Positions 10,061 to 63,107 of a stretch of DNA of 64,000 bases are shown piece after piece. A program made the translations under genes and the position numbers. The DNA is from an uncultured SAR324 cluster bacterium (lineage in GTDB: Bacteria; SAR324; NAC60-12), in assembly GCA_905182865.1 (NCBI GenBank), contig CAJJCY010000003.1, positions 393,740-457,739 of the forward strand, written 5' to 3'. Within the stretch, counting starts at the first letter, position 1. Each line of letters opens with the position of its first letter. The notes beneath the pieces are model-generated. The model worked only from the letters and a program-made list of their open reading frames with translations, was not told the DNA's origin and ran no database searches.

Positions 10061-13048
10061 TTGCACGACAAACAAATGATTAATTGCCAAAATGAGATGC
10101 AGTATGGAGTGTTGATGAAAAACTTTTTTGTCTTTTTCCGTAAAATAATACCGGAAAAAAGCTGCTGTTTTGTTTTTATCATTTTGCTGCTCTGTTTTTC
10201 TTCATCTACGGCGGCAAAGGAGGAAGACTCTGAAAAACTTAAAAAAGATTATTTCCTATCACAAAGTTTGAAACTGGGAAAGAAACCGGTTCAGTCCGCT
10301 TTTTTCTCACCAAATGACCAGCAGGCTGTCATCTTGTCCGGAAGTTCTTCTCTGGAAATATTCAGAATTCAAAATGGAAAAAGACTGAGTGTAATTTCCA
10401 GTCATGAACATAAGGCCATTTCACTTGTCCTTCATGCTGGAGGAAAGTTGGCGGTGACCGGAGGGCAGGATGACACTGTTAGAATTTGGAGTACTGACCA
10501 GAGCACTGTACAGGCAGTTATGCGGGGTCATCTGAGTGCTGTTTCCGAACTTGCTCTTAATACTGGAGGAGAGATTTTGGCTTCTGGAAGTCTTGACGGA
10601 ACCGTTATCCTGTGGAACATGAAAGAACATGAATTGCTGAAATCTACCAAGGTTATCGGTAAAAGCAGCATAAAAAGTCTGGCCTTCCATCCGAATGGCA
10701 GAATTCTCGCCATTGGTGGAGAAGATGGAAGTTTACAATTTCGAAGTATCCCTGAAATGAAACTGATAACCACCCTCTCTGGTCATAAAAATTCGATTAA
10801 TGATCTTGAATTTAATCCGCGTGGCGATTTATTTGTTTCCGCCTCTGAGGATGGGAAAGTGATTATCTGGGATTGGAAAGTCAAAAAACAACGTTCCAAA
10901 ATAAACTTTGAAGAGGCTGTTTCAACAATAAGCATCAATCCAAAACTTGCAGAGATTGTTGTTGGAACTGCAGGAGGGAGACTTGAAACATGGAGTCTTG
11001 CAAAAGGAACATTGCTGCATCAAATCACTGAATCCGGTCCCTTGATTAGCAGTGCAGGATATGACAGAAACGGAAGCAGGATTATTTCTGCACTGGAAGA
11101 TGGAACTGTGCAGATCTGGGAAAATGGGGTATCACTGCATATGAAAACATTCAGCGGTCATGAGCGGATCGTTGAATCGCTAGAATTTTCGCAAAACAAC
11201 AAGTTTCTCATCAGTTCCTCCTCCGATAAAAGCGTACGTATCTGGGATCTGAAAACAAATGAGAGCGTACACAATTTTGATATCGGTAATCACAGGGTGC
11301 AGGACCTTCGTTTTGCTCCCGGAAGCCAACAATTTGCTACCGCGGGAACGGACAGTTCTGTGATAATCTGGGATGCAAAAGATGGAAGTCGCGTTCGTAC
11401 CTTGAAATTTCACAAAGGAAAAATCAATACCATCAGCTATCATCCTCAAGATTCAGTACTGCTTTCCGCGGGTTCTGACAGGAAGTGGGTACTATGGGAT
11501 TTGGTTTCCGGAAAGTCCCTGCTTTCTCATAAAGGGCATACCTCTCAAATATTAGCGGCATCTTTTTCTCCAGACGGCAAGCGCTTTGCCACTGCCGGCA
11601 GTGACCTTTTCATAAAAATCTGGCAATACCCTCAGGGAGAAGAGCTCGGACAACTCAAAGGACACAAGAAACCTGTTAGAACTCTGGCCTTCAGTCCCGA
11701 TGGTAAATTGCTTGCGAGCGGTTCACAGGACAATCAGATTTTTCTATGGGGACTTGAACCGGAAATTTCAAAGACTCCTTTCCGAAAATTAGTTGGACAC
11801 AGTGACACTGTTACTCAGATATTTTTTTCCATATCTGGAAAAGCATTGATTTCAATTTCCAAAGACAAAACGATGCGCCTGTGGGAAGTAAAAAGCGGTA
11901 ACATGCTGCGCATACTTCATGCTGACGCTACTCCTCTTTTTGCCGCTGCGCTAAGTCCAGACGGGAAATTAATTGCATTAAGCAACCTGACAAATGATAT
12001 TACCATCCTCACATTTCCAACCGATATTCCGGAGTTGCAGGATGATAAAGGTGACGTTTCAGCATCCGGAGAAACTGTTAATTCAGCAAGTTTACAAACT
12101 TCTGAGTCAGATTCGGATGCATCGGATAAATACGGAATTGACTTGGAGAATTTGAAGGAAATGGAAAAACTGCCGATGACTGCAGAAGAATTACGTGCCT
12201 ATGCTGTGACTGAAACCGAAGATTTATCAACAGTTCAATACGACTTGCAGCATCGTCTTAATCTGCTTCTTAAAACAAAAGACACGTGTCTGCATGCTGC
12301 AGAGATGGAAAAACTGGCACTGAAAATATTAGTCATTGTTCCTGATGATTTGGCTGCATATCATGCATTGGTCAAGACGTCTATCCTCAAACAGGATTTT
12401 GCAACACTGAGTCTGTTTGTAAGTTCGGGGTATTTTGCAGAATTGGATCAAGAACTTTATGATTATATTTCCATATTGGAAGTTAGAAATATTTTTGATA
12501 ATTTACGATTTGAGCTTTTTGATCAATCGTTTGTACGTCAGGGTAACAAACAAAAAATAAAATTGGAAAACTGCAAAGTCAATCCTCTCTCAGTCAGCTT
12601 ATCAGGAATTTCCTGGAACTTACGTTATCCAGTTGAGTTTTTAAAAAATATAAATTCTATACCTCGTTTGATTGACTTGCGGGAATATATGAATTTGCCG
12701 CAGAAAGAGTTTCAGGACAGGATGTTTGCTGAGATAGAACGGATTCTCGGAAGCAAGACTCCTCATTCTACTTCATACCTCCCGAAAACACCGGAAGAGC
12801 GGTCAGAAAAGGTTCCGGTAGGAATACTGAATTTAAATCTTGAAAAAGCCCAGACCTGGAAAGATGACGGCATGGCTTCATTTAGCTTACGTAAACTAGG
12901 GGGGCAGTGGCAGAGCTACCAAACCGATCGGGATAACAGAATTGTCATGCATCTTCCTGCAGGAAGTTATTCTCTGAAAGTTGCAGGAGTTTTAAGAAAA
13001 ACATTTTTCCTCATTGACGGCACCCAGCTAGACCTGTCTATTGATTAA
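10061..13048 (+). CDS. Large WD40-repeat protein with an N-terminal signal/TM segment and a ~330-aa C-terminal domain of unknown function. The probable start is the Met near 10115.
   Basis: About 13 tandem WD40 units ('GH..SV..LA....G..LASGS.DGTV..W' pattern repeated). The hydrophobic N-terminus is 'FVFIILLLCFSSSTAA'. Confidence 0.8.
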   Translation: MHDKQMINCQNEMQYGVLMKNFFVFFRKIIPEKSCCFVFIILLLCFSSSTAAKEEDSEKLKKDYFLSQSLKLGKKPVQSAFFSPNDQQAVILSGSSSLEIFRIQNGKRLSVISSHEHKAISLVLHAGGKLAVTGGQDDTVRIWSTDQSTVQAVMRGHLSAVSELALNTGGEILASGSLDGTVILWNMKEHELLKSTKVIGKSSIKSLAFHPNGRILAIGGEDGSLQFRSIPEMKLITTLSGHKNSINDLEFNPRGDLFVSASEDGKVIIWDWKVKKQRSKINFEEAVSTISINPKLAEIVVGTAGGRLETWSLAKGTLLHQITESGPLISSAGYDRNGSRIISALEDGTVQIWENGVSLHMKTFSGHERIVESLEFSQNNKFLISSSSDKSVRIWDLKTNESVHNFDIGNHRVQDLRFAPGSQQFATAGTDSSVIIWDAKDGSRVRTLKFHKGKINTISYHPQDSVLLSAGSDRKWVLWDLVSGKSLLSHKGHTSQILAASFSPDGKRFATAGSDLFIKIWQYPQGEELGQLKGHKKPVRTLAFSPDGKLLASGSQDNQIFLWGLEPEISKTPFRKLVGHSDTVTQIFFSISGKALISISKDKTMRLWEVKSGNMLRILHADATPLFAAALSPDGKLIALSNLTNDITILTFPTDIPELQDDKGDVSASGETVNSASLQTSESDSDASDKYGIDLENLKEMEKLPMTAEELRAYAVTETEDLSTVQYDLQHRLNLLLKTKDTCLHAAEMEKLALKILVIVPDDLAAYHALVKTSILKQDFATLSLFVSSGYFAELDQELYDYISILEVRNIFDNLRFELFDQSFVRQGNKQKIKLENCKVNPLSVSLSGISWNLRYPVEFLKNINSIPRLIDLREYMNLPQKEFQDRMFAEIERILGSKTPHSTSYLPKTPEERSEKVPVGILNLNLEKAQTWKDDGMASFSLRKLGGQWQSYQTDRDNRIVMHLPAGSYSLKVAGVLRKTFFLIDGTQLDLSID

Positions 13049-16080: not shown

Positions 16081-16602
16081 ATGCCTTTATACACACTCGA
16101 TGAATCGAGTCCAGAATTTACAAAAACAACTTTTATTGCACCAGATGCCAGTCTCATAGGAAGAGTACGGATTGGTGCTTATTCTTCAGTTTGGTTTAAC
16201 GCAGTTCTCCGGGGAGATATGGAATACATCAGCATTGGAGACGAAACCAGTTTTCAGGATTTAAGCATGGGACATTCTGATCCCGGATTCCCGCTGATTA
16301 TTGGGAATCGGGTGACGGTAGGACATCACTGCGTAATGCACGGCTGCGAAGTTGAAGACGACTGCCTGATTGGAATGGGTGCGATTTTGATGAATGGAGT
16401 AAAAATTGGTCGTGGGAGTATTGTGGGTGCGGGTGCAGTTGTGCTGGAAGGAACGGAAGTTCCTCCGTTTTCAATGATCGCCGGATCGCCTGCAAAAGTT
16501 CGCAAGACCTATGAAGAAAGCATTTTGGAGAATATCAGAAGTATGTCGCAAATTTATGTAAAGCGTACGATACGATACCTTGAACAAAATATTGGTGGAT
16601 AA
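16081..16602 (+). CDS. Gamma-class carbonic anhydrase family protein (hexapeptide-repeat, YrdA/PaaY-like)
   Basis: Left-handed beta-helix hexapeptide repeats and the 'GHHCVMHGC' His ligand region. Confidence 0.8.
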   Translation: MPLYTLDESSPEFTKTTFIAPDASLIGRVRIGAYSSVWFNAVLRGDMEYISIGDETSFQDLSMGHSDPGFPLIIGNRVTVGHHCVMHGCEVEDDCLIGMGAILMNGVKIGRGSIVGAGAVVLEGTEVPPFSMIAGSPAKVRKTYEESILENIRSMSQIYVKRTIRYLEQNIGG

Positions 16603-16812
16603 AGTAAAGGCTTAATCCATGCCATGTTTGCCTGCGAAACGTTGGACTACAGTAATTTTGTTGGTGTAGTTATATGTTAACAGATTGAAATAATTAATCA
16701 TTTATAATTTATTAATTTATATTTCATGAAAGCTTGTATTTGATCAACTCTTTGTTACAATGTTTGACGGCGAAATCGTTTCGTCTTGGGGTTTCCCGTA
16801 AAAAATTGCTCT

Positions 16813-16918
16813 TTATCCACAATTAAAACTTCGGATAAAGATGAATGAGGGTTTCTTTAAGGGTACCTCACATTGAGTTTGAAAGTTATTTTATTTGGGA
16901 CAAGAATTTTGTGGATAA
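16813..16918. promoter_or_regulatory. Pair of inverted DnaA-box-like 9-mers, TTATCCACA at 16813-16821 and its reverse complement at 16910-16918. They sit in an AT-rich 370-bp intergenic region upstream of the substrate-binding protein gene.
   Basis: Exact matches to the DnaA box consensus TTATCCACA. The flanking 12-14 nt also form an imperfect inverted repeat. Confidence 0.3.
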
Positions 16919-16973
16919 GATGAGATTTCAAACTACATTTATTCTCTAACATTCATTTTCAGGAGACTGCTAA

Positions 16974-18017
16974 GTGACTATAATTGACAAGGCTCCAGAG
17001 GCTTTTAAATTTTTCTTGTCAACAGTTACGGCCGCATGCATCGCCGCACCGACCCTTGCGGGCGAGCTGTTGGTTTATTCCAGTACGGATGCAGATAATC
17101 TCAAATATTATATGGAGGAATTCCAAAAAGATAATCCCGATATTAAAGTCAATGTTGTGCGCGAATCTACGGGAACCATGGCCGCCAAAATGATGGCTGA
17201 AAAAGATAACCCGCAAGCAGATTTCCTTTTTGAAATGGCGGCAACTGTCGCGCTCAACATGGAATCCCAAGGGATGTTTCATGAATACACGCCCGTGGGG
17301 ATGGACAAGATAGACCCTCGTTATGTTGACACAACAGCACCTGTTACCTGGGTTGGAAATTATGGCTGGGCCGGTTGCATCTGCTGGAACAGGATCGAAG
17401 CTGAGAAGCTTGGTTTGCCAAAGCCAACATCTTGGGCAGAGTTGGTAAACCCGATTTATAAAGGTCACATTTCGATGCCAAATCCAGCCTCATCTGGCAC
17501 AGGATTCCTTGATGTGTCCAGCTGGATGCAGATTATGGGCGAAGATAAGGCATGGGAATATATGGATGCGCTGCATGAGAATGTTGGTATTTACACCCAT
17601 TCTGGATCAAAGCCGTGTAAACAGGCCGGCGCAGGGGAATTTCCAATCGGTATTTCGTGGCCGGGTCGGGCGATCAAAATCATCAAGGCGGGTGCACCGA
17701 TTGATATGATCATTCCTGATGAAGGTATCGGTTGGGAAATGCAGGTTGTTGCCATTATTAAGGGCACGGACAACCTGCCAGACGCAAAGCGATTGATGGA
17801 CTGGACACTTGCCCGAGGGATGGAGCTTTTTGGAGAACGCCAATCCATCATAGCTGATGTTTCCAAGGTCAAAAAAGACCCTGAATTGCCTGATTTTTAT
17901 GATGAGGTTGTGGCCAAACTGATCAATAATGATTTCGTTTGGGCAGCTCAGAACAAAACTGAAATCGTCGGCGAATGGAAAAGACGCTATGACGGCAAGT
18001 CAGAGCCAAAAAAATAG
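16974..18017 (+). CDS. ABC transporter substrate-binding protein, Fe3+/2-aminoethylphosphonate (AfuA/PhnS) family
   Basis: Signal peptide plus 'LLVYSSTDADNLK...EKDNPQADFLF', characteristic of the AfuA/PhnS family. Confidence 0.7.
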   Translation: MTIIDKAPEAFKFFLSTVTAACIAAPTLAGELLVYSSTDADNLKYYMEEFQKDNPDIKVNVVRESTGTMAAKMMAEKDNPQADFLFEMAATVALNMESQGMFHEYTPVGMDKIDPRYVDTTAPVTWVGNYGWAGCICWNRIEAEKLGLPKPTSWAELVNPIYKGHISMPNPASSGTGFLDVSSWMQIMGEDKAWEYMDALHENVGIYTHSGSKPCKQAGAGEFPIGISWPGRAIKIIKAGAPIDMIIPDEGIGWEMQVVAIIKGTDNLPDAKRLMDWTLARGMELFGERQSIIADVSKVKKDPELPDFYDEVVAKLINNDFVWAAQNKTEIVGEWKRRYDGKSEPKK

Positions 18018-18168
18018 CCGGCAGTTTGCATAGTGAAAAGATCAAGTATCAGTAAAGCGGAAAGAGGCGGTATCGCCTCTTTCTGGCCCACTTACCTAAT
18101 CTGTTTGTAAAACCAGTTAGCGGTGACGAATATGAATTCCTGTAGATAATACGTTCGACTTCGCTGCT

Positions 18169-19200
18169 GTGGAGACTTTAACATACATGGATTTTCGCAG
18201 GCCTTTGAGTGTAAAAATACATGTGCCAGCCGAGGCAACCGTATGGCTTTTTTGGGGTATCAGGTTGTGGAAAGACAACCCTTTTACGCTGTATTGCAGG
18301 GTTGGAAACACAGTCTTCAGGAACCATTACCCAAAAGAATGTAGAAATTTCCAGGCTTCCTCCATCGGCAAGGGATTTCGGTATTGTTTTTCAATCTTAT
18401 GCTCTTTTTCCCAATTTGACAGTGTTTTCAAATATATCCTATGGCCTGATCAATCATAAGTGGGGGAAAGAAAAAATCAACTCAAGAGTCAACGAATTGC
18501 TTGACCTGGTGGGATTGAAATCCCATTCAACTAAATACCCAGGCCAGTTATCTGGCGGGGAGCAACAGCGTGTGGCTTTGGCAAGAGCTCTTGCAACATC
18601 TCTTACAACTGCTCTAGCTGCCATCGTTCCAAAGGTAGCTATCTGATCTCAGAAAACAGATAAAAGATCTACATCGTAAACTAGGAATTACAACGATCAT
18701 GGTCACACATGATCAAGAAGAAGCATTAGCTGTTTCAGATGAAATTGTAGTTATGCGAAATGCCAATCACTTTTTCATCGTAAGGATGTATGCTTTTTAT
18801 AAAAGCTAATTCGCCTTTTATTGCAGATTTTATCGGAGTTACAAATTTTATCGATGCCAAAGTCCTTGCAAAAAACAAAGTAGCCTGCCATAGCTTTGAG
18901 TTGAATTGTAATACAGAAGATCTGAATACTGATCTTTCTGTCCGACTGGCTATCAGACCTGAATGCATCATCCTGAACCATGCTACTTCGGATTCAGAAA
19001 ACTCCATCGACGCCGTCATCGTGGAGAATGAATTCCTTGGTTCTTTTCAGAGGATTTATGTAGAATCAACTTTACTATCCAATGAGCTACTTATGATTGA
19101 TGTGTCTAGTGCATCTCTCACAGAGATGGATTTAACTCCCGGTTCACAAATCCACATGATACTTCCTCCGGATCAGATAAGAGTTTATCCCTGTGACTGA
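18169..19200 (+). pseudogene. ABC transporter ATPase (PhnT/AfuC-like) pseudogene. Its pieces lie in three frames and the Walker B region is deleted.
   Basis: Walker A 'GVSGCGKTT' and signature '[16 protein letters not shown]' are in frame 2 (18221-18646). The H-loop '[31 protein letters not shown]' is in another frame (~18669-18790). The C-terminal TOBE-like domain is in a third frame (18790-19200). No 'LLLDEP' is present. Confidence 0.7.
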
Positions 19201-19324
19201 TCTATCCCTTTCCAAAATTTACCCGGCCAATATCCAAGTAATAATTCTGAGGAAGTAGAATCTGTATAGTTATTGGTTCTTATGTTTTGAGCTCGCTCTG
19301 TATTCTCTTTTATCACTTGGTACT

Positions 19325-20923
19325 TTGATTTTGAAAAGCGTCCAAGATCAAAAAGGCAATTTCATAGGCTTAAAAAATTATCTAATTTACCTGAATGAAC
19401 CAGCACTTTTTCAATCTTTTTTTAACAGTTTGTTCATTGCAATTGTTTCAACCATTATTGTTGTTATTTTAGCATTTTCATTTGCCTATGCTCTTACGCA
19501 CACTCGGATGCCGTTTAAAGGATTTTTCCGTCTTATTGCGTTAATTCCTCTGCTCAGCCCGTCCATCTTGGCGGCCATCGCTCTGGTTTATTGGTTCGGC
19601 AATCAGGGTGTTTTGAAAGAACTGCTGTTTGGATATTCCATCTATGGTCCGATTGGGATTGTCATGGCGTCTGTCTATTGGACGTTTCCGCATGCTCTGA
19701 TGATTTTGAGTACCTCGCTGTCTTTATCTGATGCACGGCTTTATGAGGCTGCCGAAGTCTTACACACGAGCAAATTGCGCGCATTTTTAACAATCACAAT
19801 TCCCGGAGCGCGGTACGGTATCGTCAGTACAATCTTTGTAATATTCACGCAGGTTTTTACAGATTTTGGGGTCCCCAAAGTGATTGGTGGAAATTACAAT
19901 GTTTTGGCCACAGATATTTATAAAGAAGTCGTTGGCATGCAGAACTTTCAGATGGGGGCCGTTATCTCACTGGTTTTGTTATTACCGTCATTATTTGCCT
20001 TTTTCATTGACCAGTATTCAAGGAAAAAACAAATATCCTTATTGACATCACGCTCAGTTGTTTTTAATCCAAAAAAGAGTTTTGGAGTTGATAGTCTCAT
20101 GCTGAGTTATTGTGTCCTCATAACACTGATCATTCTGATGATGATTGGCATGGCACAATTCGGAGCACTTGTTGAATTCTGGCCATATAACCTCTCGTTT
20201 ACTCTAAAGCATTATCAATTTGAAGTGGCAGGCCTCGGGTGGGAATCGTTTTACAATTCCGTCCGCCTTGCCTTTTATACGGCTATTTTTGGAACTGTTA
20301 TAATTTTCATAGGCTCATACCTTGTTGAAAAACTTAAATCTGATGAAAGATTCCGTGGTATTCTTCAACTATTTGCCTTAATGCCGATGTCTGTTCCGGG
20401 ATTGGTACTGGGGCTTTCCTATATATTTTACTTTAACGCCAAAGACAACCCGATAAACTTTATCTATGCCACCATGAGCATTATGGTTTTCAATACCATT
20501 GTCCATTTTTATACTGTTTCGCATCTTACTGGTGTTACTGCATTGAAGCAAATGGATAAAGAATTTGAGTCAGTATCATTATCTCTCAAAATCCCCATTT
20601 ATAAAATGTTCTGGAGGGTAACACTGCCGGTTTGTTTACCAACTATATTTGATATTGCCATATACCTTTTTGTCAATGCCATGACTACCGTTTCAGGTGT
20701 GATTTTCCTTTATACCTATAATACTACACTGGCTTCAGTATCTGCGATTCATCTCGATGAACAAGGGGATGTAGCAGCAGCAGCAGCAATGGCAATGTTA
20801 ATTGTTTATGTGTCAGTAGTGGTTCGTATCATACACGCCTTTTTCAGCAAAGGTGTTTTGCGTCGAACTCAAGCATGGAGACACAACACTCAAAATGTTG
20901 AAAACGATGCAAACAAAACATGA
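19325..20923 (+). CDS. Fused two-domain ABC transporter permease (iron(III)/AEP PhnU/V-like). Starts with TTG; the N-terminus is uncertain.
   Basis: Two six-TM permease halves and two EAA-like loops ('SLSDARLYEAAEVLHTSKLRAFLTITIPGAR' and a second copy). Confidence 0.75.
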   Translation: MILKSVQDQKGNFIGLKNYLIYLNEPALFQSFFNSLFIAIVSTIIVVILAFSFAYALTHTRMPFKGFFRLIALIPLLSPSILAAIALVYWFGNQGVLKELLFGYSIYGPIGIVMASVYWTFPHALMILSTSLSLSDARLYEAAEVLHTSKLRAFLTITIPGARYGIVSTIFVIFTQVFTDFGVPKVIGGNYNVLATDIYKEVVGMQNFQMGAVISLVLLLPSLFAFFIDQYSRKKQISLLTSRSVVFNPKKSFGVDSLMLSYCVLITLIILMMIGMAQFGALVEFWPYNLSFTLKHYQFEVAGLGWESFYNSVRLAFYTAIFGTVIIFIGSYLVEKLKSDERFRGILQLFALMPMSVPGLVLGLSYIFYFNAKDNPINFIYATMSIMVFNTIVHFYTVSHLTGVTALKQMDKEFESVSLSLKIPIYKMFWRVTLPVCLPTIFDIAIYLFVNAMTTVSGVIFLYTYNTTLASVSAIHLDEQGDVAAAAAMAMLIVYVSVVVRIIHAFFSKGVLRRTQAWRHNTQNVENDANKT

Positions 20924-21441
20924 TCTTAACTGAATTTGATTTTGTCTCGCCATCCAATTCTACCGGGAAACTGTTCCTTATGCGTTTCCCTGGACTCAAT
21001 GAAGAGAAAGTCTTTGAACATATTATTCTTCAAAGCACTTTCTCGGCCTTGGTAAAATTAGGCTGTTCTACGGTTGTCTCTCTGGTTGAGGACATAGAGT
21101 TTGAAAAAATCTGCGGCAAAGAGATTTTTCACGAACAGATCAGTAAACATGATTTACAATGGCATCATCTTCCAATAGTTGATTACAAGGTGCCTGATAC
21201 AGAGTTCATCCGCAATTGGAGGACTGTATGTAAGTCACTTAAGCAGGAACTTCAGAAGGGGAACAGCATCGGGTTGCACTGTAAAGGTGGTATTGGCCGT
21301 TCAGGAACAGTAGCAGCCATGTTACTCATTGAAAATGGTGAAGAAAATACAGAAGCCATCCAGCATGTTCGGCAGAAAAGAAAAGGTGCTATTGAGAACC
21401 AACTGCAGGAAGATTTCGTTTTAAATTTCAGTATCAAATAA
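20920..21441 (+). CDS. Cys-based protein-tyrosine/dual-specificity phosphatase-fold protein
   Basis: CX5R P-loop 'HCKGGIGRSG'. The start overlaps the permease stop (ATGA), which suggests co-translation. Confidence 0.7.
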   Translation: MILTEFDFVSPSNSTGKLFLMRFPGLNEEKVFEHIILQSTFSALVKLGCSTVVSLVEDIEFEKICGKEIFHEQISKHDLQWHHLPIVDYKVPDTEFIRNWRTVCKSLKQELQKGNSIGLHCKGGIGRSGTVAAMLLIENGEENTEAIQHVRQKRKGAIENQLQEDFVLNFSIK

Positions 21442-21626
21442 GATTCGATTGAAAAAAGCGAACTGGGCCATACTTTTCCCATATAATTCAACAGCGCATT
21501 AAGCTGTCAATTTCGACATCGACTTGACCTACATGGTTTTTAGTGCAATTGTAAGGAAGTCGTTCAGTAGAATTATTATTTTGGTTAAAGTTTTCAGAAG
21601 AATTTTCTTACTTATTGTAGAGTAAA

Positions 21627-22886
21627 ATGAGTTCAAATACATTGCCAAATACAAAAAATGTACACATCATCGGTGCAGGTATCGTTGGATTGTGCTGTGC
21701 GCTCCATCTACAACGAGACGGTTGGCAGGTGACTCTAATCGACAAGGTTGGACCCGGTGAATCTTGCTCTTTCGGCCATGCCGGAGTTCTTTCCGAAACT
21801 TCCGCTCTGCCAAATGCGATGCCCGGAGTAATGGTAAAAGTCCCCAAATGGTTACTTGATCCGGAAGGTCCGCTTTACATTCGTTTTAGATATTTGCCCC
21901 AACTTTTGCCTTGGTTATTGCGCTTCCTCAAAGCTGGAACCGCAAGCGAATCTGAAAATACGGTGCGGAGTCTATTAGCACTTAACGCCGGTACAGTTGA
22001 GAAATATCAGACCTTAGTTAATGGTTCACAAGTCAGAAGTTTAATCCGACCTTCCGGGTATTTGAATGTCTATCAAAATGAATCTTCATTCAATCATGCT
22101 TCCAGGGGATGGGAATTATTACGGAGACATGGTGCTCAACTACGTATGCTATCCGGAGAAGAATTGCATGAGTTAGAACCAACACTATCCCCTTCTTATA
22201 TCCGAGCAGTTTTAATCGAAAATCAAGGCTATACCACCAATCCTTTTCGGCTGGCGCAGGTGTTGAGCGAACAGTTTTCTCAAACAGGTGGAATAATTTT
22301 GCGAAGGGAGGTTAGAGAAGTACGCTTATCAGCAGAAGGAAATGTGAGACTGAATTTAGACCTAGGTTATGTTGAGTCCAAGAAACTTGTGGTGGCTGCC
22401 GGAGCGTGGTCGCACCGATTCACAGCCCAACTAGGAGTCAGTATCCCCTTGGAAACAGAGCGTGGCTATCACGTCACCATCGCTCATCCCGAGGTGCTGC
22501 CAAGCCATGTCATCATGGAAGCGGAACGTAAATTTGTGGCAACTCCAATGGAAATAGGGTTACGGTTTGCTGGAACAGCAGAACTAGCTGGATTAGAGGC
22601 TCCTCCAAACTATAAGCGTGCAGAAATTTTGTTGCGTTTAGGTAAACGTATGTTTCCAGGAATTTCAGGAACAGAAAAAACAGAATGGATGGGACATCGA
22701 CCCAGTCTCCCGGATTCACGTCCAGTGATCGGAAAGTGTCCGGATGCACCCAACATACTATTTGCTTTCGGACATGGTCACCGAGGTTTGATTGGCGCCC
22801 CAATGACTGGAGAAATTATCACTGACCTGATAGCAAATCGTCCACCTAAAATTGACATCACTCCATTTAGTCCAGAACGTTTCTAG
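21627..22886 (+). CDS. FAD-dependent oxidoreductase (DadA/glycine oxidase/D-amino-acid oxidase family)
   Basis: Dinucleotide-binding 'VHIIGAGIVGLCCALHL' and a DAO-family C-terminus 'GHGHRGL'. Confidence 0.75.
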   Translation: MSSNTLPNTKNVHIIGAGIVGLCCALHLQRDGWQVTLIDKVGPGESCSFGHAGVLSETSALPNAMPGVMVKVPKWLLDPEGPLYIRFRYLPQLLPWLLRFLKAGTASESENTVRSLLALNAGTVEKYQTLVNGSQVRSLIRPSGYLNVYQNESSFNHASRGWELLRRHGAQLRMLSGEELHELEPTLSPSYIRAVLIENQGYTTNPFRLAQVLSEQFSQTGGIILRREVREVRLSAEGNVRLNLDLGYVESKKLVVAAGAWSHRFTAQLGVSIPLETERGYHVTIAHPEVLPSHVIMEAERKFVATPMEIGLRFAGTAELAGLEAPPNYKRAEILLRLGKRMFPGISGTEKTEWMGHRPSLPDSRPVIGKCPDAPNILFAFGHGHRGLIGAPMTGEIITDLIANRPPKIDITPFSPERF

Positions 22887-23014
22887 TCAATTTATGAAAA
22901 TATTTATCTACAGATCAATTCCAGAATTATATTTGAAAGATCAGTGATAATATATGATCAATTAGTTAAAACAGATTGAGTAGATTACAAAAATTTTTGA
23001 TATATTTTTCTGAA

Positions 23015-23491
23015 TCAGGCTGCAATATCGTTGGATTCTTGAGTCTGGGAAATTACGGTAAATGCAGTTTGCAGTTCAATGGGAGTAAGTTCTTCAAGTT
23101 CAGTATGTTCACTGTTCAGGGTTCTGTTTATGAACTGAAGCTGAGGTTCTTTGGTAACATAACCCAATTGATTCAGTTGTCGATCCAAGGTTTCAAACAC
23201 CCTGTTACGTAACTGCTCATTGGTGTTTTTATCTTTTGCGAGAATTTGCTGTCCATGAAAATTAATAGTGTTTATCTCACCTTTATAAGACTGCTTCGAC
23301 AGAGTTTTGTCTCCTCTTAACTCTAATGCGACAATCACCGAAGTGATCGCCACTGAAGTCGGCAAAAAAACAATAAAATCATTTCCATAGTAACCCATTT
23401 GCTGGTTTTTACTAGTTTTACAGGGTTCAAAAGTCAGTTCTAATTTTATCTCAAATTCCTTAGATTCTGATTCGGACCAAGTGCTGTGCAA
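23015..23491 (-). CDS. hypothetical protein
   Basis: 158-aa ORF with one predicted TM segment and no motif. Confidence 0.3.
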   Translation of the reverse strand: MHSTWSESESKEFEIKLELTFEPCKTSKNQQMGYYGNDFIVFLPTSVAITSVIVALELRGDKTLSKQSYKGEINTINFHGQQILAKDKNTNEQLRNRVFETLDRQLNQLGYVTKEPQLQFINRTLNSEHTELEELTPIELQTAFTVISQTQESNDIAA

Positions 23492-31240: not shown

Positions 31241-31423
31241 CTCGTTAGTCACGAGTTCTCGTAAGATAATGATATTGTTGTTTACGGTTTGTCATCTCGA
31301 CCGAAGAAAGGGACCTGATAAAATACTTATATCGGGCAAGATTCTTCACATACTTTCGGGATGACATGACAAAGCTAGTGTTTGTCCAGTAAATAAATAC
31401 ACAAATTTTACCTTATATTTAAC

Positions 31424-39061: not shown

Positions 39062-39195
39062 TATTAATTTTCCTGTTTATTTGTTATAGTGACAATCTCG
39101 CAGAAGGCACGCGGGTGGGATCCAGGAACTCTGAAACTGTCCCCCGCTACCGTATTCTCCAATACAATAATGTACGGGCACTGTGCGCTGTATCC

Positions 39196-42342: not shown

Positions 42343-42430
42343 GGAGAGTTGTCAGAGTGGTCGATTGTGGTAGATTTGAAATCTGCTGTACGGCAACGTA
42401 CCGGGGGTTCGAATCCCTCCCTCTCCGCCA
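42343..42430 (+). tRNA. tRNA-Ser (anticodon UGA), class II with a long variable arm
   Basis: Acceptor GGAGAG/CTCTCC. Anticodon stem GTAGA/TCTGC with loop TTTGAAA. T-arm GGGGG-TTCGAAT-CCCTC. 3' end GCCA. Confidence 0.8.
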
Positions 42431-45600: not shown

Positions 45601-46068
45601 ATGAATAATCCCAATCCTCCGTCACTGCCGCTTAAATCGGATGGATCAATCAGCAAAATTTGGTTTGCCGATGATTCGCAGGGCATTGAGCTGCCGTTTT
45701 ATGATACAAAGGTTCAGGCAGGTTTCCCCTCTCCCGCAGAAGATCATCTGGAGCAGAGGCTTGATTTAAACACACTGATGATCGAAAACCCAAGCGCTAC
45801 TTTTTTTGTGCGTGTGGCCGGTGAGTCAATGAAGGACATCGGCATTACTGACGGCGACATCCTGGTTGTGGACCGCAGTATTGAAAGCTGGGGAAACCGC
45901 ATTGTGGTGGCTGTGATTGATTCCGAATTTACAATTAAGCGTTTTACCACACAAAATGAAACGGTAGTTCTGGAAGCAGAAAATCCAGACTATCCGGCAA
46001 TTAAAATTACGCCTGAAATGGATTTCTCTGTCTGGGGAGTGGTTAGCTGGACCTTAAAAAAACTATGA
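45601..46068 (+). CDS. umuD: Translesion polymerase accessory protein UmuD (LexA-like S24 peptidase)
   Basis: Ser/Lys dyad context 'GESMKD...TIKRF'. Confidence 0.85.
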
Positions 46069-47327
46069 TTGCCCTGATTGACTGCAATAATTTTTACGCG
46101 TCCTGTGAACAGGTTTTTCAGCCCCAACTGGCGGGAAAGCCACTGGTTGTGCTTTCCAACAATGACGGCAATGTCATTGCCCGCTCCAGTGAAGCAAAGA
46201 AACTGGGCATTGGAATGGGGGTGCTGACCGGCAGTGTCCGTGGATTTGTCCGGAGCCACGAACTGCAGATACGCTCATCGAACTATGCTCTTTACGGTGA
46301 TATGAGCAGCCGGGTGATGGAAACACTGGAAGAGCTTTTACCCAACGTGGAACGCTACAGCATCGATGAGGCTTTTGCGGATCTTTCCGGTTTATCACGC
46401 GCACGGATGCTGGAACTTTGTCAGCATGTACGGCACCGAGTGCAGCGTCACACAGGTCTTCAGGTTTCTATAGGAGTCGCAGAAACAAAAACGCTGGCCA
46501 AAGTTGCAAACCGGCTGGCAAAACGCCGTCCGGAATTATCCGGAGTCTGCATCGGAACTGAGACTGAAAGTTTTGGTAAGGTACTGGAGCAAATGGAAAC
46601 CGGAGATGTTTGGGGAATTGGGAGAAAGATCAGCAAAAAATTAACTGGATTCGGCATCTACAATGCAAAGCAGTTGCGGGACGCGGATCCTGTCTGGATT
46701 AAAAAACAATTTTCTGTGGTGCTGATGCGTACAGTTCTGGAGTTACGTGGTGAAAGCTGCCTGGAACTGGAGGAGCCCGAAGAATCGAGAAAGTCCCTCA
46801 TGTGCGGACGTTCATTCGGCAAGCCACTAAAGGAACTGGAAGATATCCGGCCGGCATTGACTCATTTTGTGCAAAATGCTGTTACACGGCTCTGGAAATA
46901 CAAGCAGGCGACTTCGGCCCTTACCGTGTATTTGTCAACAAACCGGTTCCGCAAAAACATTGCTCAACGCAGTGTTTCCGCATCTGTTGAAATGGAAGCG
47001 ACTGATAATGTGCTTCAGCTCAATGCCGAGGCTCAGCGCGTGCTGGAGCAGGCTTTTGAGTTCGGATTTGAATACCACAAAGTGGGTGTTCTGCTGCACG
47101 ATCTTGTTGCAGTAAAAAATATTCCAGCCTCGCTTTTTGAAACAGAATCGGGAATTAAAAACTCACCGGAACTGATGTGGGCTGTAAGAGAGATCAATGC
47201 GAAATTCGGACGCTATACCGTGGCTTCCGCTTCTGTTTCCGGAAGTTCAGACTGGAGGGCGCGCAGCAAATTCCGGAGCCCCGCCTTTACAACCTGCTGG
47301 AATGAATTGCCGCTCGTGCAGGCTTGA
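46065..47327 (+). CDS. umuC: Y-family DNA polymerase V catalytic subunit UmuC
   Basis: '[14 protein letters not shown]' N-terminus. Overlaps umuD by ATGA. Confidence 0.9.
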
Positions 47328-49355: not shown

Positions 49356-51763
49356 TCATAAAATCATTTTGGTGAGACTACTACCATTTCCATCAAAACT
49401 TGAAGCTTCAGAACCCCAACCTATGAAACCATATCTGTCAGAAGAAGTACCAAGATTTCTTCCCGAATGTGTATTACTGTTAGAGGCCACCATATCTCCG
49501 TCAACAAATATCTTTTTATCTACTGTACTGGATGAATTATACCATCCACAAATGTGATGCCAATTCCCATCTTCATAAGATTCAGTTCGCAAAACGGCTG
49601 GATATTTCAGAGGCAGTTAATGCTCTGTTGTAGATTCTTAATTCATCTATTGCTCCCGTGAAAAAAGTACTGCCGTTTCTGTTTCTTCCTATTCTGAAAC
49701 GGTTGAATTCAGTCGTACCTCCTGATCACTTTCAGTTATCATCTATTAATATAACCTATGGAATTAGTACCATCGTAAGTGAAGGCGATGAATGTCCAAG
49801 CATCTAGTTGTGCTGTGCTCAAAACGATGTTGCCTCCGCTTGATTTTCTGATATGAAAATTGCTTCCATTAAGATCAATCTGAAAGCCACTACCTGAGTC
49901 ATTGTAGCTTGAAAACATAGCTTCATAAGTTCCCGAACTGGCGGGCTTGGCCCAGAGTGAAATAGTGTAATTGTCAAAACTTGGGATATTTGCCGTTTCC
50001 AGATAATCTCCATCGCCATCGAAATAATAGGCACTGTTGCTGGAGTTATCCTTGCCGTCGGTTAAGGTTGTATCACCATAAACTGTAAAATCTCTTCCGT
50101 TGCTAGTTAAATCTTTAGCATTTCCATTGAATGGATAGTATGCAACCAATGAGTTATCAAATGTGTTAAATGATGTTTCATAGGGGCTTTCCAGTGAAAC
50201 TCATTTTCGTCTTTGGTATCTGTGGTTAATTTAATTTTATATTTATTATCATAAGAAAGATTGTCAGATGGATCAAACGTAAAGGTCTTGGCCGAGTTGG
50301 AAATGTAAGGTGAGGATGACATCTGGACACATGTGCTGAAATTGTCTGAGGAAACCTGAAAACTACCATAACAAGATGTATTGTCGGTATTAGTAGTTAT
50401 AGAACTGTTGTCCATAATCTCCGAGAAGATTAAAGATATGTTTTCACTTACTGAAACTGAACTTTGGTTGTCTCTCGGAGAGATAGAAGAAACAGTTGGC
50501 GCCGTGGTGTCCGTCACAGTTGTCGCAACAGTCACGCTGTTGCTCGATGCGCTGGAGAGGTTGTGTACGGCGTCCTCTGCATAAACTTTGTAGGTACCGT
50601 CCTCAAGTTCCGTAGCTGGCAAATTAGTATCGGAATTTGCTAAGATGATGGGAACACTGTTCCACTGGCTGTCCGCAGCTCCCGTGATGCTGGTAAAATT
50701 ATTACTGACCGAGACAGTGGTTTTGACCAGGTAGGCCGTGCCGGTCTCTGTGCTCTGTACCACGGCACTACCGGAGGTGGTTATAGTAGCTGTGGTGACA
50801 CTGGCAGCCGGTGGAGTGGAATCTGACATAACAGTCACGCTGTTGCTCGATGCGCTGGAGAGGTTGTGTGCGGCGTCCTCTGCATAAACTTTGTAGGTAC
50901 CGTCCTCAAGTTCCGTAGCTGGCAAATTAGTATCGGAATTTGCTAAGATGATGGGAATACTGTTCCACTGGCTGTCCGCAGCTCCCGTGATGCTGAGAAA
51001 ATTATTACTGACCGAGACAGTGGTTTTGACCAGGTAGGCCGTGCCGGTGTCTGTGCTCTGTACCACGGCACTACCGGAGGTGGTTATAGTGGCTGTGGTG
51101 ACACGGGCAGTTGGCGCCGTATTGTCAGTGCCCCCGCCAGTATCAGTGCCCCCACCTGTTTCCGTATCTCCGCCAGTATCAGTGCCCCCACCTGTTTCCG
51201 TATCTCCGTCAGTATCAGTGCCCCCATCATTGCCATCGTCACTACCAGTATCTGTATCAGTGCCTGTGCCTGGAACCGGTATCAGTGTGATAGGTAAACT
51301 GAGATTATTGGTATTTGTACCGATAGAAAAAGGTTGTGATTCTCCGTAGTAGCCAACTTCTTGGTATCCTGAAATCAAGTCAGACAAGCTGTAGTTCTCT
51401 TTGAACAGAAAGGCGAAGATTTTCATCTGTGTGTTGAGTGGAATCTCCAGGCTAACCTTCTTGTCAGCCGTATTCATCAATCCTTGTGCAAAACTGCTGT
51501 AATAATTCCTGTAGCTGCTTGTCAAGTATTCCAGCGAGGGCAGAGCGAGGATAAGGTGGGTATTATACTGGCTCAATTCGAATGCAGAAACACTTCGAGC
51601 TACTGCGTGAGGAAGATCTTTGATCGAAGTCCATATTCAGGATAACAGTCCGTGTATCCTGCATTTCCGGCTCTAGATCACCGCAGCCCGTAAAAATAAA
51701 TAAGGGTATTACTAAAAGAAACGTACACCTTAACATTCTTTTGTTTCGTATTAATCTAATCAA
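49356..51763 (-). CDS. Large cell-surface lipoprotein. The domain order is lipobox, Thr/Asp-rich linker, two Ig-like domains, SbsA-Ig/Big_5-like domain, LamG (concanavalin-like) domain. It is broken into at least four ORFs by apparent frameshifts.
   Basis: Minus-strand ORFs 51563-51763 (signal plus 'FTGC'), 50107-51576 (two ~101-aa near-identical repeats; 'SSISPRDNQSSVSVSENISLIFSEIMD'), 49739-50149 ('VAYYPFNGNAKDLTSNG') and 49356-49592 ('WHHICGWYNSSSTVDKKIFVDGDMV'). Confidence 0.65.
50531..51107. repeat. Two ~276-bp near-identical (>95%) tandem copies, period ~303 bp, encoding duplicated Ig-like domains
   Basis: 'gtcacgctgttgctcgatgcgctggagaggttgtg...' recurs at 50531 and 50834, with only a few substitutions. 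Confidence 0.8.
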
Positions 51764-51805
51764 TCGTAATTTATTTCAATGATCACACGCAGGTTCGTCT
51801 CAATG

Positions 51806-53674
51806 TCACCCATGCGTGTCATCAATCTCACCAAGAATGTCACCATAATCACTATAATCATCACCGCCACCATAATCACCGTAATCATCACCGCCACCAT
51901 AATCGCCGTAATCATCACCACCACCATAATCACCTAACTCACCACCTCCTAATCTCCTAATCAGTCACCACCCCCTAAGTCTCCTGGGTCTCCTCCAAAG
52001 TCACCACCTCCTAAGTCTCCTGTCTCCTCCAAAGTCCCCACCACCTAAGTCCTCCTGTCATCCTCCAAAGTCCCCTGGGTCTCCTCCAAAGTCCCCACCA
52101 CCTGAAGTCCCCTGGTCTCCTCCAAAGTCACCACCACCTAAGTCTCCTGTGTCTCCTCCATGGTCACCTGATCCACCTAATCTCCTGGATCCTCCTGGAT
52201 CACCTCCAAAGTTTCCTCCTGGATCACCTCCTGGATCCCTCCTGGATCACCTCCGGATCACCGTCCTGGATCACCTGCCTGGATCACCTGGTTCCTCCTG
52301 GATCACCTGGTCACCTGGATCACCTCCGATCACCTGGATCACCTCCGAAGTCTCCTGTCCTGGATCACCTCCGAAGTCACCTCCGAAGTCTCCTCCTGGA
52401 TCATCCTCCAAAGTTTCCTCCGAAGTCTTCGTCTCCACCGAAACTTGCTCCGAAGTCGTCATCATCGCCGAAACTACCATCTGGGCTGAACTCTGTGCCC
52501 ATAGGTTTAAATGTGTCTGCGCCAGGTCCAACACTTTCAGGCCCCATCATCATTCCACCTTGTTCACCTTCAGGTCCCATCTCCCCCTTGTCACCTCGGC
52601 CCATCATCATTCCACCTTGTTCACCTTCAGGCCCCATCATCATTCCACCTTGTTCACCTTCAGGCCCCATCATCATTCCACCCTCTTCACCTTCAGGACC
52701 CATCATCATTCCACCCTCTTCACCTTCAGGCCCCATCATCATTCCACCCTCTTCACCTTCAGGACCCATCATCATTCCAGGTCCTCCTCGGACCTTCATC
52801 ATCTCCTGGTTTTCCTTCACTTCCAGGTCCTATTATGCCTTCTTCATCTTCCTCTCCCTCTCCAGGCATTCCAGGTCCTTCTTTTCCTTCAGGTCCAGGA
52901 CCTTTCTCATCTCCCGGTTTTGGTTCTCCTTCTTTGTCCTGAGGTTCATAGCTGTTTCTTTTGTTCTTCCTCTTCCTCCTTTTTCTTTTTTTCATTTTCT
53001 TTGCGTACTTCTTCCGGCTTTACCGCCTCTCCGAATTTGACGATTCTAAAAGCTTTGGGCGAGTCGGCCTTGAGGATCTGTGCACGCATTTTTGGGGCAA
53101 CTTCAACAGGCGCAGTTGGAGTGGAGTTCTTCTGAACTGTGGAAGCCTGGTTTGCAGGTACTTCAATTTCGATGTCAGGCATGTTCACCGGCGCTAATGA
53201 AACTGTACCGGAAATAGTGAGAAGACTCGTTTGTGTGTTGGAAGCGCCAACCACAAAATCGGTCCCCCTCACACCTACCAGCGCAGTAACGGTACGAATC
53301 TGAAATCGTTTCCTTTTGCTCTTCTTTTTGAGTTTGCCTTGAATCTTAAAACGGGCTTTTCCGGTCAGCAGGGAAATACTGCTGGTTTGCCGGGTAATCT
53401 TTCCCATTCGAAAAAAGGAACGGGAGGAGAGTTCAATTATTTCAGGTTTACCCTTGATCTTGATTTTAACGGTTGTATCTTTGCCGGTCTGTACACGGTC
53501 TTTGGCATGGAGGGCCATTTTGGCGCCGGGCTTGCGTAGCAGACGTGTGCGTTCCGGGCCGATCACCTTGACCGAACCTTTTTCCAGCAACAGTAGTCCC
53601 TGCTGTGCCTGCAGGGGAATTGCAGGAATGACAGCCAGGAACAGGGCCAGCAGGAGTAAAAATCGAAATTTCAT
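51806..53674 (-). CDS. Secreted FecR-domain protein with a very long low-complexity tail. The tail is KE-rich, then collagen-like GP-rich, then seven copies of GPEGE(E/Q)GGMMM, then (GGDFGGD) and (DYGGGDDYG) repeats. It is split across at least four frames.
   Basis: ORF 52946-53674 has a signal peptide and a FecR-like beta-domain ('IRTVTALVGVRGTDFVV'). Downstream minus-strand ORFs 52759-52995, 52401-52820 and 52271-52534 continue a Gly/Asp/Met-rich reading across 33-bp and ~27-bp DNA repeats. Confidence 0.5.
52541..52780. repeat. 33-bp tandem repeat of about seven units (ccccatcatcattccacc(t/c)t(g/c)ttcaccttcagg)
   Basis: Directly visible in the sequence. It encodes GPEGExGGMMM on the minus strand. 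Confidence 0.85.
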
Positions 53675-53745
53675 GAGTATGTTTGGTTTTTCTTTAAATC
53701 TAATTTCATTAATTGATCGACTGTGTCAAGCAGATAGTTTAATTT

Positions 53746-62700: not shown

Positions 62701-62720
62701 CGTTTGTAGCAGCACTGTTT

Positions 62721-63107
62721 TTAATAAATTCCGCAGAAATAACCTGATGGCCGCGCCGTAATACGTTCTTTGATCCGGGCTGCTTTTCCACTACGGTCTC
62801 TCAGGTAATAAAGTTTTGCCTGGCGCACTTTCCCGACTTTAATGACATCAATACTATCAATCCGGGGAGAGTGTAGTGGAAAAATTCGTTCAACACCATA
62901 CCCCTGGGTTACTTTTCGTACAGTGAAAGTGGCTTTATTGTTACTTGCACTGCAGTGCTTGCCAATGATGACACCCTCAAATGCTTGTATGCGTTCTTTG
63001 TTTCCTTCAGTAATTCGGTAATTAACCCGGACGCTGGATCCGACTCTTAGCTCCGGCAACCCGCTGCGTAATTGCGATTGCTCAATCTTTTCCATTACAG
63101 TAGACAT
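62721..63107 (-). CDS. rplS: 50S ribosomal protein L19
   Basis: '[25 protein letters not shown]...'. Confidence 0.9.

Follow-up and report, generated by a model that had tools for sequence, protein, structure and literature searches.

A mosaic AepXVW-type importer locus in a SAR324 contig, its intact same-species counterpart and its cysteine-phosphatase partner

The window analysed here, a stretch of 64,000 nucleotides from an uncultured SAR324 cluster bacterium (contig CAJJCY010000003.1 of assembly GCA_905182865.1), carries an operon for an ATP-binding cassette (ABC) importer in which the genes for a substrate-binding protein (SBP) and a fused permease are separated by an ATPase gene in pieces. 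A preliminary description of the locus had read this ATPase as a true pseudogene with several independent lesions, and the question that it raises is whether the organism has lost its importer or whether the damage belongs to this one contig. We found that the operon is intact in the species, and that the dead ATPase is private to this contig and probably not biological. Genes were called as open reading frames (ORFs) and by three-frame translation, followed by Pfam and NCBIfam profile scans, and comparisons were made with assembled contig sequences. Coordinates are those of the whole window, and all genes of the locus lie on the plus strand (Table 1).

The importer operon is intact in the species

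The locus is an importer operon of the AepXVW, or PhnS2-T2-U2, type, a transporter family that is already known: the genes for the SBP and the ATPase are followed by one gene for a fused 12-helix permease, to which the gene for a cysteine phosphatase of the protein-tyrosine-phosphatase (PTP) fold is translationally coupled, and next comes a DadA-like FAD oxidoreductase. The family named in the preliminary description, the AfuA/PhnS type, was correct and could be narrowed to the PhnS2, PhnT2 and PhnU2 equivalogs, with AfuA as the closest solved SBP. The SBP of the window lies above the PhnS2 cut-off (TIGR03261, 407.0 against 392.75 bits); the permease also exceeds its cut-off (TIGR03262, 741.4 against 593.25 bits), but its match begins only at model position 25. 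The arrangement downstream is exactly as first described, with the permease stop and the phosphatase start overlapping as ATGA (20920-20923), a CX5R phosphatase (motif HCKGGIGRSG) and a gap of 185 nt to the FAD enzyme. A promoter and terminator scan of 16500-23300 gave nothing exceeding shuffled controls.

The ATPase-like sequence, 18018-19324, runs from the SBP stop at 18017 to the permease ORF at 19325 in three frames, with no complete ORF. Frame 2 (18221-18646) extends from Walker A (GVSGCGKTT) to the signature, scoring 91 bits with PF00005 and matching positions 35-152 of the TIGR03265 model; frame 0 (~18650-18827) holds the H-loop, VTHDQEEAL (model positions 172-211), and frame 1 (18790-19200) the TOBE domain (model positions 225-352). 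Nothing in the sequence matches model positions 1-34, 153-171 (Walker B and D-loop) or 212-224, and the three fragments, at 201.7, 59.8 and 75.4 bits, fall short of the PhnT2 cut-off (TIGR03265, 457.7 bits). The motif set of an ABC ATPase (PF00005) is not found in one frame, the codons of Walker B and the D-loop are replaced, and the gene has no ribosome-binding site, no start and none of its first 44 codons. The statements that the ATPase lies in three frames and has lost Walker B were confirmed by three-frame translation and the TIGR03265 mapping, and the gene is indeed beyond repair by a single base change.

An exact look-up of the phosphatase protein returned 184 index blocks of the contig collection. 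Between the MatE gene and the flagellar genes, eight same-species contigs (L002-L009) run collinear with the window, with only scattered single-nucleotide polymorphisms (SNPs) beyond the locus; flank identity between the window and same-species contigs is about 99.1-99.9%. In all eight the operon is intact, encoding an SBP of 349 aa, an ATPase of 361 aa and a permease of 579 aa; the phosphatase protein is identical, and the FAD enzyme (419 aa) has one difference. The ATPase of these contigs scores 484.6 bits with TIGR03265, against the cut-off of 457.7, over model positions 4-352. Within one and the same 90% cluster, intact ATPase proteins occur on 179, 84, 17 and further contigs, and the broken ORFs of the window on two. 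The names attached to the protein clusters, 'SAR324 cluster bacterium', 'Deltaproteobacteria bacterium' and 'Candidatus Lambdaproteobacteria', put the organism in the SAR324 group. The preliminary description had asked whether relatives keep an intact ATPase and the same neighbours, and eight of eight same-species contigs do; its reading of the locus as decayed does not agree with the population, in which a single intact ATPase ORF is seen on hundreds of contigs versus two broken copies. A pseudogene with several lesions in a long contig can be convincing from the sequence alone and yet may be a chimera; here it was the same-species contigs that revealed the intact operon.

Five blocks and their possible origin

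The damage was mapped column by column against the allele of the eight same-species contigs, hereafter A-type. All differences from this allele at the locus are confined to 16973-19912 and fall into five blocks, B1-B5, and the native blocks (18263-18601, 18646-18725, 18801-19219, 19314-19494 and 19913 onward) are 100% identical to all eight A-type contigs. The retained native sequence, about 2 kb of which some 840 nt is ATPase, contains no substitution.

Block B1 (16973-18262), comprising the entire SBP gene and a spacer of 245 nt, is foreign. At the DNA level its SBP gene is 99.1% identical to that of contig L016 and 98.9% to that of L228 (B-type), compared with 75.7% to the A-type, and the earlier claim of an intact SBP holds for the ORF, which is open, but not for the native allele, which has been exchanged for a foreign one. 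The SBP of the window is without the 13 N-terminal codons called in the B-type proteins; it begins at codon 14 and keeps the hydrophobic core of the signal. The spacer equals the first 245 nt of the 350-nt region between the SBP and ATPase genes of the B-type operon, and takes the place of the native intergenic region and ATPase codons 1-44. In L016 the ATPase does not start before position 1662, and the possibility that 18018-18262 is a frameshifted ATPase N-terminus was ruled out by its 95-96% identity to the B-type intergenic spacer.

The second long foreign block, B5 (19495-19912), consists of 418 nt within the permease gene that are 99.3% identical to L016 and 75% to the A-type; it is in frame, and both of its borders lie within stretches common to the two parents. 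The contigs L016 and L228 belong to another organism, with a GC content of 48% and a third-position GC (GC3) of 0.48-0.62 versus 0.36-0.41 in the window, and their operons are flanked by an amino-acid ABC transporter and by neither the phosphatase nor the FAD enzyme; L228 comes from a metagenome-assembled genome (MAG) labelled Paracoccaceae. Judged by these identities, B1 and B5 stem from the homologous operon in another organism, one with about 48% GC. A paralogue within the same genome is an unlikely B-type donor in view of the difference in GC3 and the different flanking genes.

Two junctions delimit B1. At J1 (16972/16973), exactly at the native start codon, CAGGAGACTGCTA is joined to AGTGACTATAATTG; the parents share only 1-2 nt there, and the join puts the native AGGAG ahead of a GTG and the foreign SBP. 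At J2 (18262/18263) the foreign spacer is joined to ATPase codon ~45, inside Walker A, with the microhomology TTTTTGGG..GG.

The three remaining blocks are short patches, with 43, 75 and 93 nt (B2, B3 and B4) replacing 57, 77 and 103 nt of the A-type, and neither parent matches them. B2 removes Walker B and the D-loop, shifts the frame and adds a stop; its resemblance to the homologous segments is noisy, at 27/45 for the B-type (z 3.6) and 25/45 for the A-type (z 2.7), and that of B4 is marginal (z 1.8-1.9). The first 38 nt of B3, 13 codons in frame, are identical at 37 of 38 positions to an FbpC-like ATPase gene of low-GC (37%) marine contigs, a match found with a degenerate pattern that fixes the amino acids, so that only about 11 wobble positions are informative; the remaining 37 nt have no match. 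In the matching locus (L095) the genes for an SBP, a 738-aa permease and the ATPase follow one another as in an FbpABC-like operon. The degenerate search returned at least 120 loci, all of another ABC family, and its design cannot prove a donor of B3. Several borders of the patches coincide with conserved ABC motifs, namely Walker A, the end of the signature helix (after ALARALATS), the H-loop (after THDQEEA) and a point before remnant 3.

The permease had been described as intact, and this is not the case. B4 destroys its DLSD.VG motif and first membrane helix and introduces an in-frame stop, the window reading RK, stop, NLYSYWFLCFELALYSLLSLG, at a place where all natural family members that we compared keep SD.VG...FLLFLV.PLG. 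Forty-seven N-terminal codons are lost (532 versus 579 aa), the first membrane helix included, and the ORF opens on a TTG without a ribosome-binding site. The protein that remains differs from the A-type at only 13 residues.

Searches for the sources of B2-B4 elsewhere in the 64-kb window gave only chance matches of 9-12 nt, and among the B-type, C-type and other PhnT2/U2 operons of 227 fetched loci they gave none except the FbpC-like match of the first part of B3. Each patch had 0 matches in the IMG/VR viral contigs, and the 26-mer spanning J1 had 0 in the metagenome_contigs collection. Inversion, reversal or complementation of the lost sequence does not explain the patches, which show weak forward similarity to it only, and a diversity-generating retroelement was set aside because the pattern is not adenine-specific.

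Table 1. Features of the importer locus, in window coordinates.
Feature	Position	Strand	Remarks
Native (A-type) upstream intergenic region	16603-16972	+	97-99.7% identity to A-type contigs L002-L009
Ribosome-binding site AGGAG	16961-16965	+	Native
SBP PhnS2, AepX-type, 347 aa, GTG start	16974-18017	+	TIGR03261, 407.0 bits; foreign B-type allele
Foreign spacer, 245 nt	18018-18262	+	95.5-96.3% identity to L016-L021 downstream of the SBP stop
ATPase remnant 1, native	18263-18601	+	End of Walker A (SGCGKTT), Q-loop, LSGGEQQR signature; 100% identity to L002-L009
Patch B2	18603-18645	+	43 nt in place of 57 nt (Walker B, D-loop; PGLLLLDEPLSALDAKVRV)
ATPase remnant 2, native, 26 aa with H-loop	18646-18725	+	100% identity to A-type
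Patch B3	18726-18800	+	75 nt in place of 77 nt after the H-loop; frame lost
ATPase remnant 3, native, TOBE domain to native stop	18801-19200	+	PF08402 TOBE_2; 100% identity to A-type
Patch B4	19221-19313	+	93 nt in place of 103 nt, permease codons ~10-43
Fused permease PhnU2 remnant, 532 aa, TTG start	19325-20923	+	TIGR03262, 741.4 bits; native except block B5 (19495-19912)
PTP/dual-specificity-fold cysteine phosphatase, 173 aa	20920-21441	+	PF22784, PF22785, PF00782
DadA/glycine-oxidase-like FAD oxidoreductase, 419 aa	21627-22886	+	PF01266, 209 bits

Private damage is found in other parts of the contig as well. Over about 38 kb, 11 indel events are private to the window, where each of 13 same-species short-read contigs has 0-1. 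On the minus strand, at the 5' end of rnhB and the 3' end of rplS (62620-62743), two noisy patches, one of 57 for 54 nt and the other of 43 for 36 nt with indels, flank 25 identical bases; through them RNase HII loses its catalytic DEAGRG motif and has its frame shifted, and rplS gains six codons (L19 of 128 instead of 122 aa). These changes are private to the window when it is compared with four same-species contigs. In sdhA, also on the minus strand, one extra G at 59336, outside any homopolymer, leaves ORFs at 59329-60681 (450 aa) and 58725-59357 (210 aa), where the SdhA of four same-species contigs has 644 aa; the 210-aa product is recorded for the window's contig only.

Further private indels or dense substitution clusters were noted at 39106-39148, 52788, 52944-52954, 53706-53719, 31327-31347 and 23360. 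By ORF coordinates the site at 31327-31347 is intergenic, and the deletion at 23360 lengthens the ORF at 23015-23491 from 124 to 158 aa.

On the pattern of these sequences we take the mosaic, with modest confidence, to be a chimera of the consensus, produced in assembly or polishing, rather than a state of the genome. Reads of homologous genes from co-occurring taxa would have been recruited at conserved stretches during polishing and would have overwritten or garbled the draft of a long-read assembly, and the organism itself would retain a working importer. A long-read assembly would be implied by the size of the contig, 862,857 nt from an uncultured SAR324 bacterium. With three conserved genes broken, each privately to this contig, within the roughly 40 kb compared, an error of the consensus is a simpler explanation than one strain that bears every one of these lesions and no point substitution between them. 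Watson and Warr, in 2019, are said to have reported that residual errors of long-read consensus produce false pseudogenes, and the present case resembles such false pseudogenes in that private indels and garbled patches break the conserved genes phnT2/U2, rnhB and sdhA while the short-read contigs are clean. The mosaic is also present in a second record, L001 (ERZ1699694 contig_6795), whose 6,413 nt correspond to 16596-23008 of the window with 2 SNPs and 0 indels. Both SNPs lie upstream of the mosaic, which is itself identical, and L001 spans this locus only; it would fit a redundant contig from the same read set, such as is common in long-read assemblies.

Several observations weigh against a chimera. 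Typical long-read errors are indels of 1-2 nt, but here there are clean foreign blocks on the kilobase scale and patches of 40-95 nt, so that a recruitment of reads from other taxa has to be supposed; B1 and B5, at 99% identity, are not noisy. J1 joins parents that share 1-2 nt at the start codon, and yields a good fusion of ribosome-binding site, GTG and SBP. A k-mer graph could not create this junction, and spanning molecules or a window-based long-read consensus would therefore be required; a chimera of a De Bruijn graph is unlikely at J1, where there is no shared k-mer. Two records hold the mosaic, and the allele would be real if their samples are separate. The sdhA insertion is not in a homopolymer, and the strain of the window diverges somewhat from the others, with SNPs at 0.5-0.9% in the left flank, so that some of the private differences are genuine.

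The alternative, that the mosaic is a real, recent and strain-specific recombinant allele, we consider possible but rather less probable than not. Foreign DNA with the homologous operon, from an alphaproteobacterium-like donor, would have entered the cell and taken the place of the SBP gene and the 5' end of the ATPase through illegitimate, microhomology-mediated joining at J1 and J2. Homologous recombination would have converted the 418-nt permease tract, and other ABC genes would have supplied the small patches, by ectopic conversion or template switching. What remained would be a dead importer and an orphan foreign SBP, possibly still expressed. B5, in frame and with both borders in parent-shared stretches, does resemble a textbook conversion tract, and the microhomology at J2, the plausible fusion at J1 with the signal-peptide core kept, the occurrence of the mosaic in two records that differ at two flanking SNPs and the presence of a UmuC-like polymerase gene nearby would all suit such an origin; so would the 77-83% identity of the SBPs of SAR324 and SAR116, which suggests that the operon moves between phyla. 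However, a real allele would need at least five foreign or noisy segments, from at least two to three donors, within 3 kb whose intervening 2 kb are without a substitution, and the patches have the look of noisy copies, not of clean imports. In the metagenome_contigs collection the J1 26-mer does not occur, variants of the intact protein are on hundreds of contigs but the broken ORFs on two, and the similar damage to rnhB and the frameshift in sdhA in the same contig would be costly if real. A real mosaic would be a remarkable example of patchwork recombination between phyla that inactivates a nutrient importer.

An old pseudogene, in which independent frameshifts and a deletion accumulated by neutral decay with the SBP and permease under selection, would account for an ATPase in three frames with Walker B lost, but is very improbable, and neutral decay is incompatible with the data because all differences at the locus lie in blocks and the ~2 kb of native blocks, including the ~840 nt of kept ATPase, has 0 substitutions relative to the intact same-species alleles; each lesion is, moreover, a block replacement of similar length and not a point indel, the supposed decayed N-terminus is the intergenic spacer of another organism, and the permease is damaged as well. 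The earlier verdict of several independent decay lesions thus gives way to one of block replacements with no substitutions between them, in a contig whose rnhB and sdhA are similarly damaged.

The phosphatase partner and its neighbours

The intact operon raises a question of its own in its phosphatase. Within the P-loop, HCKGGIGRSGT, the residues H120, C121, G124, G126, R127, S128, G129 and T130 are invariant in 26 homologues, and at least 90% of the sequences keep the general acid D88 (in PIVD). The AlphaFold model (pLDDT 94.2) matches the fold of KAP/CDKN3 with a TM-score of 0.79 and that of SsoPTP with 0.70, SsoPTP and the PRL phosphatases together ranging over 0.70-0.76, with a probability of 1.00. 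The protein thus has the C(X)5R P-loop, the general-acid Asp and the fold of the PTP/dual-specificity phosphatase superfamily. Its own family is small, with 72 proteins at E <= 1e-5.

To follow the conservation of the arrangement, species representatives of GTDB were scanned with the phosphatase alignment and then searched by tblastn with the five A-type proteins. The order SBP, ATPase, permease, phosphatase and FAD enzyme recurs in three MAGs of the SAR324 group (L148-L150), with identities of 76-78% for the phosphatase and 82-85% for the FAD enzyme. An ATPase, permease and phosphatase, with a divergently placed SBP gene ahead of them, were found in nine alphaproteobacterial genomes, comprising a single-amplified genome of Paracoccaceae, Hyphomicrobiales, Ca. 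Puniceispirillum/SAR116 and Ca. Salinivivens. Identities in these nine are 37-41% for the phosphatase, 55-60% for the ATPase, 69-73% for the permease and 77-83% for the SBP, and the high value of the SBP compared with the ATPase reflects either an unusually strong conservation or a recent exchange of the binding protein alone. The metagenome contigs L143 and L147 have the same linkage of transporter and phosphatase. More distant phosphatase homologues (up to 42% identity over most of their length, with a few short partial matches of 45-52%) have no such transporter nearby. The neighbourhood noted in the preliminary description is accordingly a conserved one: the phosphatase stays with the transporter across phyla, and the FAD enzyme does so within the SAR324 group, with recurrences elsewhere. 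With its conserved phosphatase partner the operon represents an undescribed variant of the AepXVW-type importer operons; literature searches on SAR324 with phosphonate and on bacterial phosphagen uptake returned nothing relevant, and no report of a phosphatase-importer arrangement.

The other neighbours vary with the lineage. The FAD enzyme is present in every locus of the SAR324 group, and a DadA-like gene of 32% identity is found in two alphaproteobacterial loci, L151 and L156, the former also with an M24 enzyme. In L147, L154 and L159-L161 the gene directly after the phosphatase is of the agmatinase family, and L153 and L155 have a copy a few kilobases further downstream, encoded on the other strand. 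Among the six SAR116-type loci, five (L153-L155, L159 and L161) have a second agmatinase-family gene upstream, and all six have an upstream DMT transporter. This company hints at a guanidino-bearing substrate. An NCBIfam scan of ten neighbour ORFs of L154 and L151 gave agmatinase-family, DMT, HisN-like, DadA-like and M24 proteins, and no known catabolic genes for 2-aminoethylphosphonate (2-AEP).

In L154 (2953-10509), and likewise in L159 and L161, two agmatinase-family genes and the DMT gene flank the PhnS2T2U2-phosphatase module, the DMT protein resembling, at a score short of the cut-off, TIGR03340, a family named 'phosphonate utilization associated'. In a further lineage, that of L143 (3378-5109), genes for PHO4-family phosphate transporters and a PhoU-like gene come after the phosphatase gene on the opposite strand, and these neighbours tie the module to phosphate acquisition.

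Elsewhere in the window, collinearity with all four same-species contigs (L229-L232) stops at a tRNA-Ser gene (anticodon TGA, 42343-42430), beyond which L232 has a phage-type integrase and small ORFs and L229-L231 have a sugar-type ABC transporter, and the site looks like a variable integration hotspot. The UmuC-like gene mentioned above (46065-47327) encodes a Y-family, error-prone DNA polymerase with IMS, IMS_C and DUF4113 domains. The region 50500-53100 is dense in tandem repeats, with periods of 9-57 nt and of 303 nt, and has an extreme GC skew (-0.49) at 52-53 kb; its ORFs probably encode repetitive proteins, one of 489 aa having an Ig-like domain (Big_5) and others no Pfam match. At 10061-13048 a 995-aa protein made up mostly of WD40 beta-propeller repeats adjoins the MatE exporter, and same-species contigs have this protein too.

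A possible substrate and the comparison with known systems

AepXVW is an experimentally characterised ABC importer of 2-AEP (Murphy et al. 2021, PMC8316502). AepX has been reported in marine Alpha- and Deltaproteobacteria, and transporters of the AepX type belong to the most highly expressed ones for phosphonates in the ocean (Murphy et al. 2021, PMC8316502); we infer that AepX corresponds to the TIGR03261 family. All three proteins exceed their NCBIfam cut-offs in the intact same-species, B-type and SAR116 copies, as do the SBP and permease of the window. The ligand of these SBPs may nevertheless differ from that of AepXVW, because their TIGR03261 scores (402.8 bits for the A-type, 407.4 for the B-type and 410.7 for SAR116) barely exceed the cut-off (403-411 versus 392.75).

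The suggestion of the preliminary description that the locus serves the catabolism of a phospho-amine or phosphonate is plausible. The SBP would capture a small amino-organophosphorus compound in the periplasm, 2-AEP being the reference ligand of the family, and PhnT2/U2 would import it; in the cytoplasm the coupled cysteine phosphatase would then free phosphate from the compound or a derivative, and the DadA-like enzyme, or amidinohydrolases in other lineages, would degrade the nitrogenous remainder. We know of no PTP-fold enzyme that cuts a C-P bond, as 2-AEP would require, and for this reason the ligand of the sub-clade may be a P-O or P-N compound.

Going further, we propose with little confidence that the intact operon is an unrecognised organophosphorus-scavenging module, shared horizontally among abundant marine bacteria (SAR324, SAR116/Puniceispirillum and Paracoccaceae-like), with an amino- or guanidino-organophosphate, and not plain 2-AEP, as its substrate and the PTP-fold enzyme freeing the phosphate. 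Suitable substrates would be a phospho- or phosphono-amine, or else an N-phosphoguanidine such as zooplankton have in their phosphagens; the guanidino compound, which the recurrent amidinohydrolases suggest, is speculative. The company of the module is, depending on the lineage, agmatinase-family amidinohydrolases, M24 (creatinase/peptidase-fold) enzymes, the DadA-like FAD enzyme, a DMT exporter, or PHO4/PhoU.

It is also conceivable, though improbable, that the PTP-fold protein regulates the transporter or signals its state without acting on the imported substrate. PRL phosphatases bind the Bateman domain of the CNNM magnesium transporters, and PRL structures are among the best fold matches of our model (query-normalised TM 0.71-0.76), its gene being translationally coupled to that of the permease. 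Against such a role, the 26 homologues keep the catalytic Cys, Arg and Asp with little or no variation, and the neighbours found elsewhere, agmatinase-family, M24 and DadA-like enzymes and PHO4/PhoU, fit catabolism better.

Among solved structures the closest SBPs are AfuA (4r72-4r75; E 2e-41) and the PLP-binding P5PA (6wce; E 3e-30). AfuABC and P5PA resemble the present system in that their SBPs, too, are of the SBP_bac_6/FbpA-like class and bind a small phosphate-bearing molecule, a sugar phosphate in the case of AfuA, but they fall into another NCBIfam family, and no sugar-phosphate or iron genes lie near the locus of the window.

The FAD enzyme invites comparison with PbfB, PbfC and PbfD. 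Encoded in clusters for AEP degradation, these FAD oxidoreductases of the PF01266 family oxidise N-methyl-AEP or AEP, yielding phosphonoacetaldehyde (Zangelmi et al. 2023, PMC10590968). The enzyme of the window is likewise a PF01266 amine oxidoreductase, and it lies beside an AEP-type transporter. However, its match to TIGR03329, 'putative aminophosphonate oxidoreductase', is negligible (20.3 against a cut-off of 632.8 bits), its best match, the DadA subfamily (NF001933), is also below cut-off (212.3 against 383), so that only the broad PF01266 is reached, and no PhnX or PhnA to use the product was found among the scanned ORFs. Its closest solved structure is a glycine oxidase (4ysh).

With KAP/CDKN3 (1fpz), SsoPTP (2i6i), PRL-1/2/3 and VHZ/DUSP23 the phosphatase shares the fold (TM 0.65-0.80), the HCxxGxGRSG P-loop and the Asp. 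Those enzymes act on proteins, whereas that of the window is the conserved operon partner of a small-molecule ABC importer.

The nearest known system remains AepXVW itself, with which the locus shares an SBP, an ATPase and a single permease gene in that order. AepXVW typically adjoins phnWX or phnWAY, whereas here, and in the SAR116 and Paracoccaceae-like loci, the neighbours are the PTP-fold phosphatase and a DadA-like or agmatinase-family enzyme, and a Pfam scan of 20 further large ORFs of the window found no genes of the phnW, X, A, Y or Z type. An AepXVW-type sub-clade with a cysteine phosphatase, and with no PhnWX or PhnWAY seen nearby, points to another substrate, or to a dephosphorylation step that would be new to marine phosphorus cycling.

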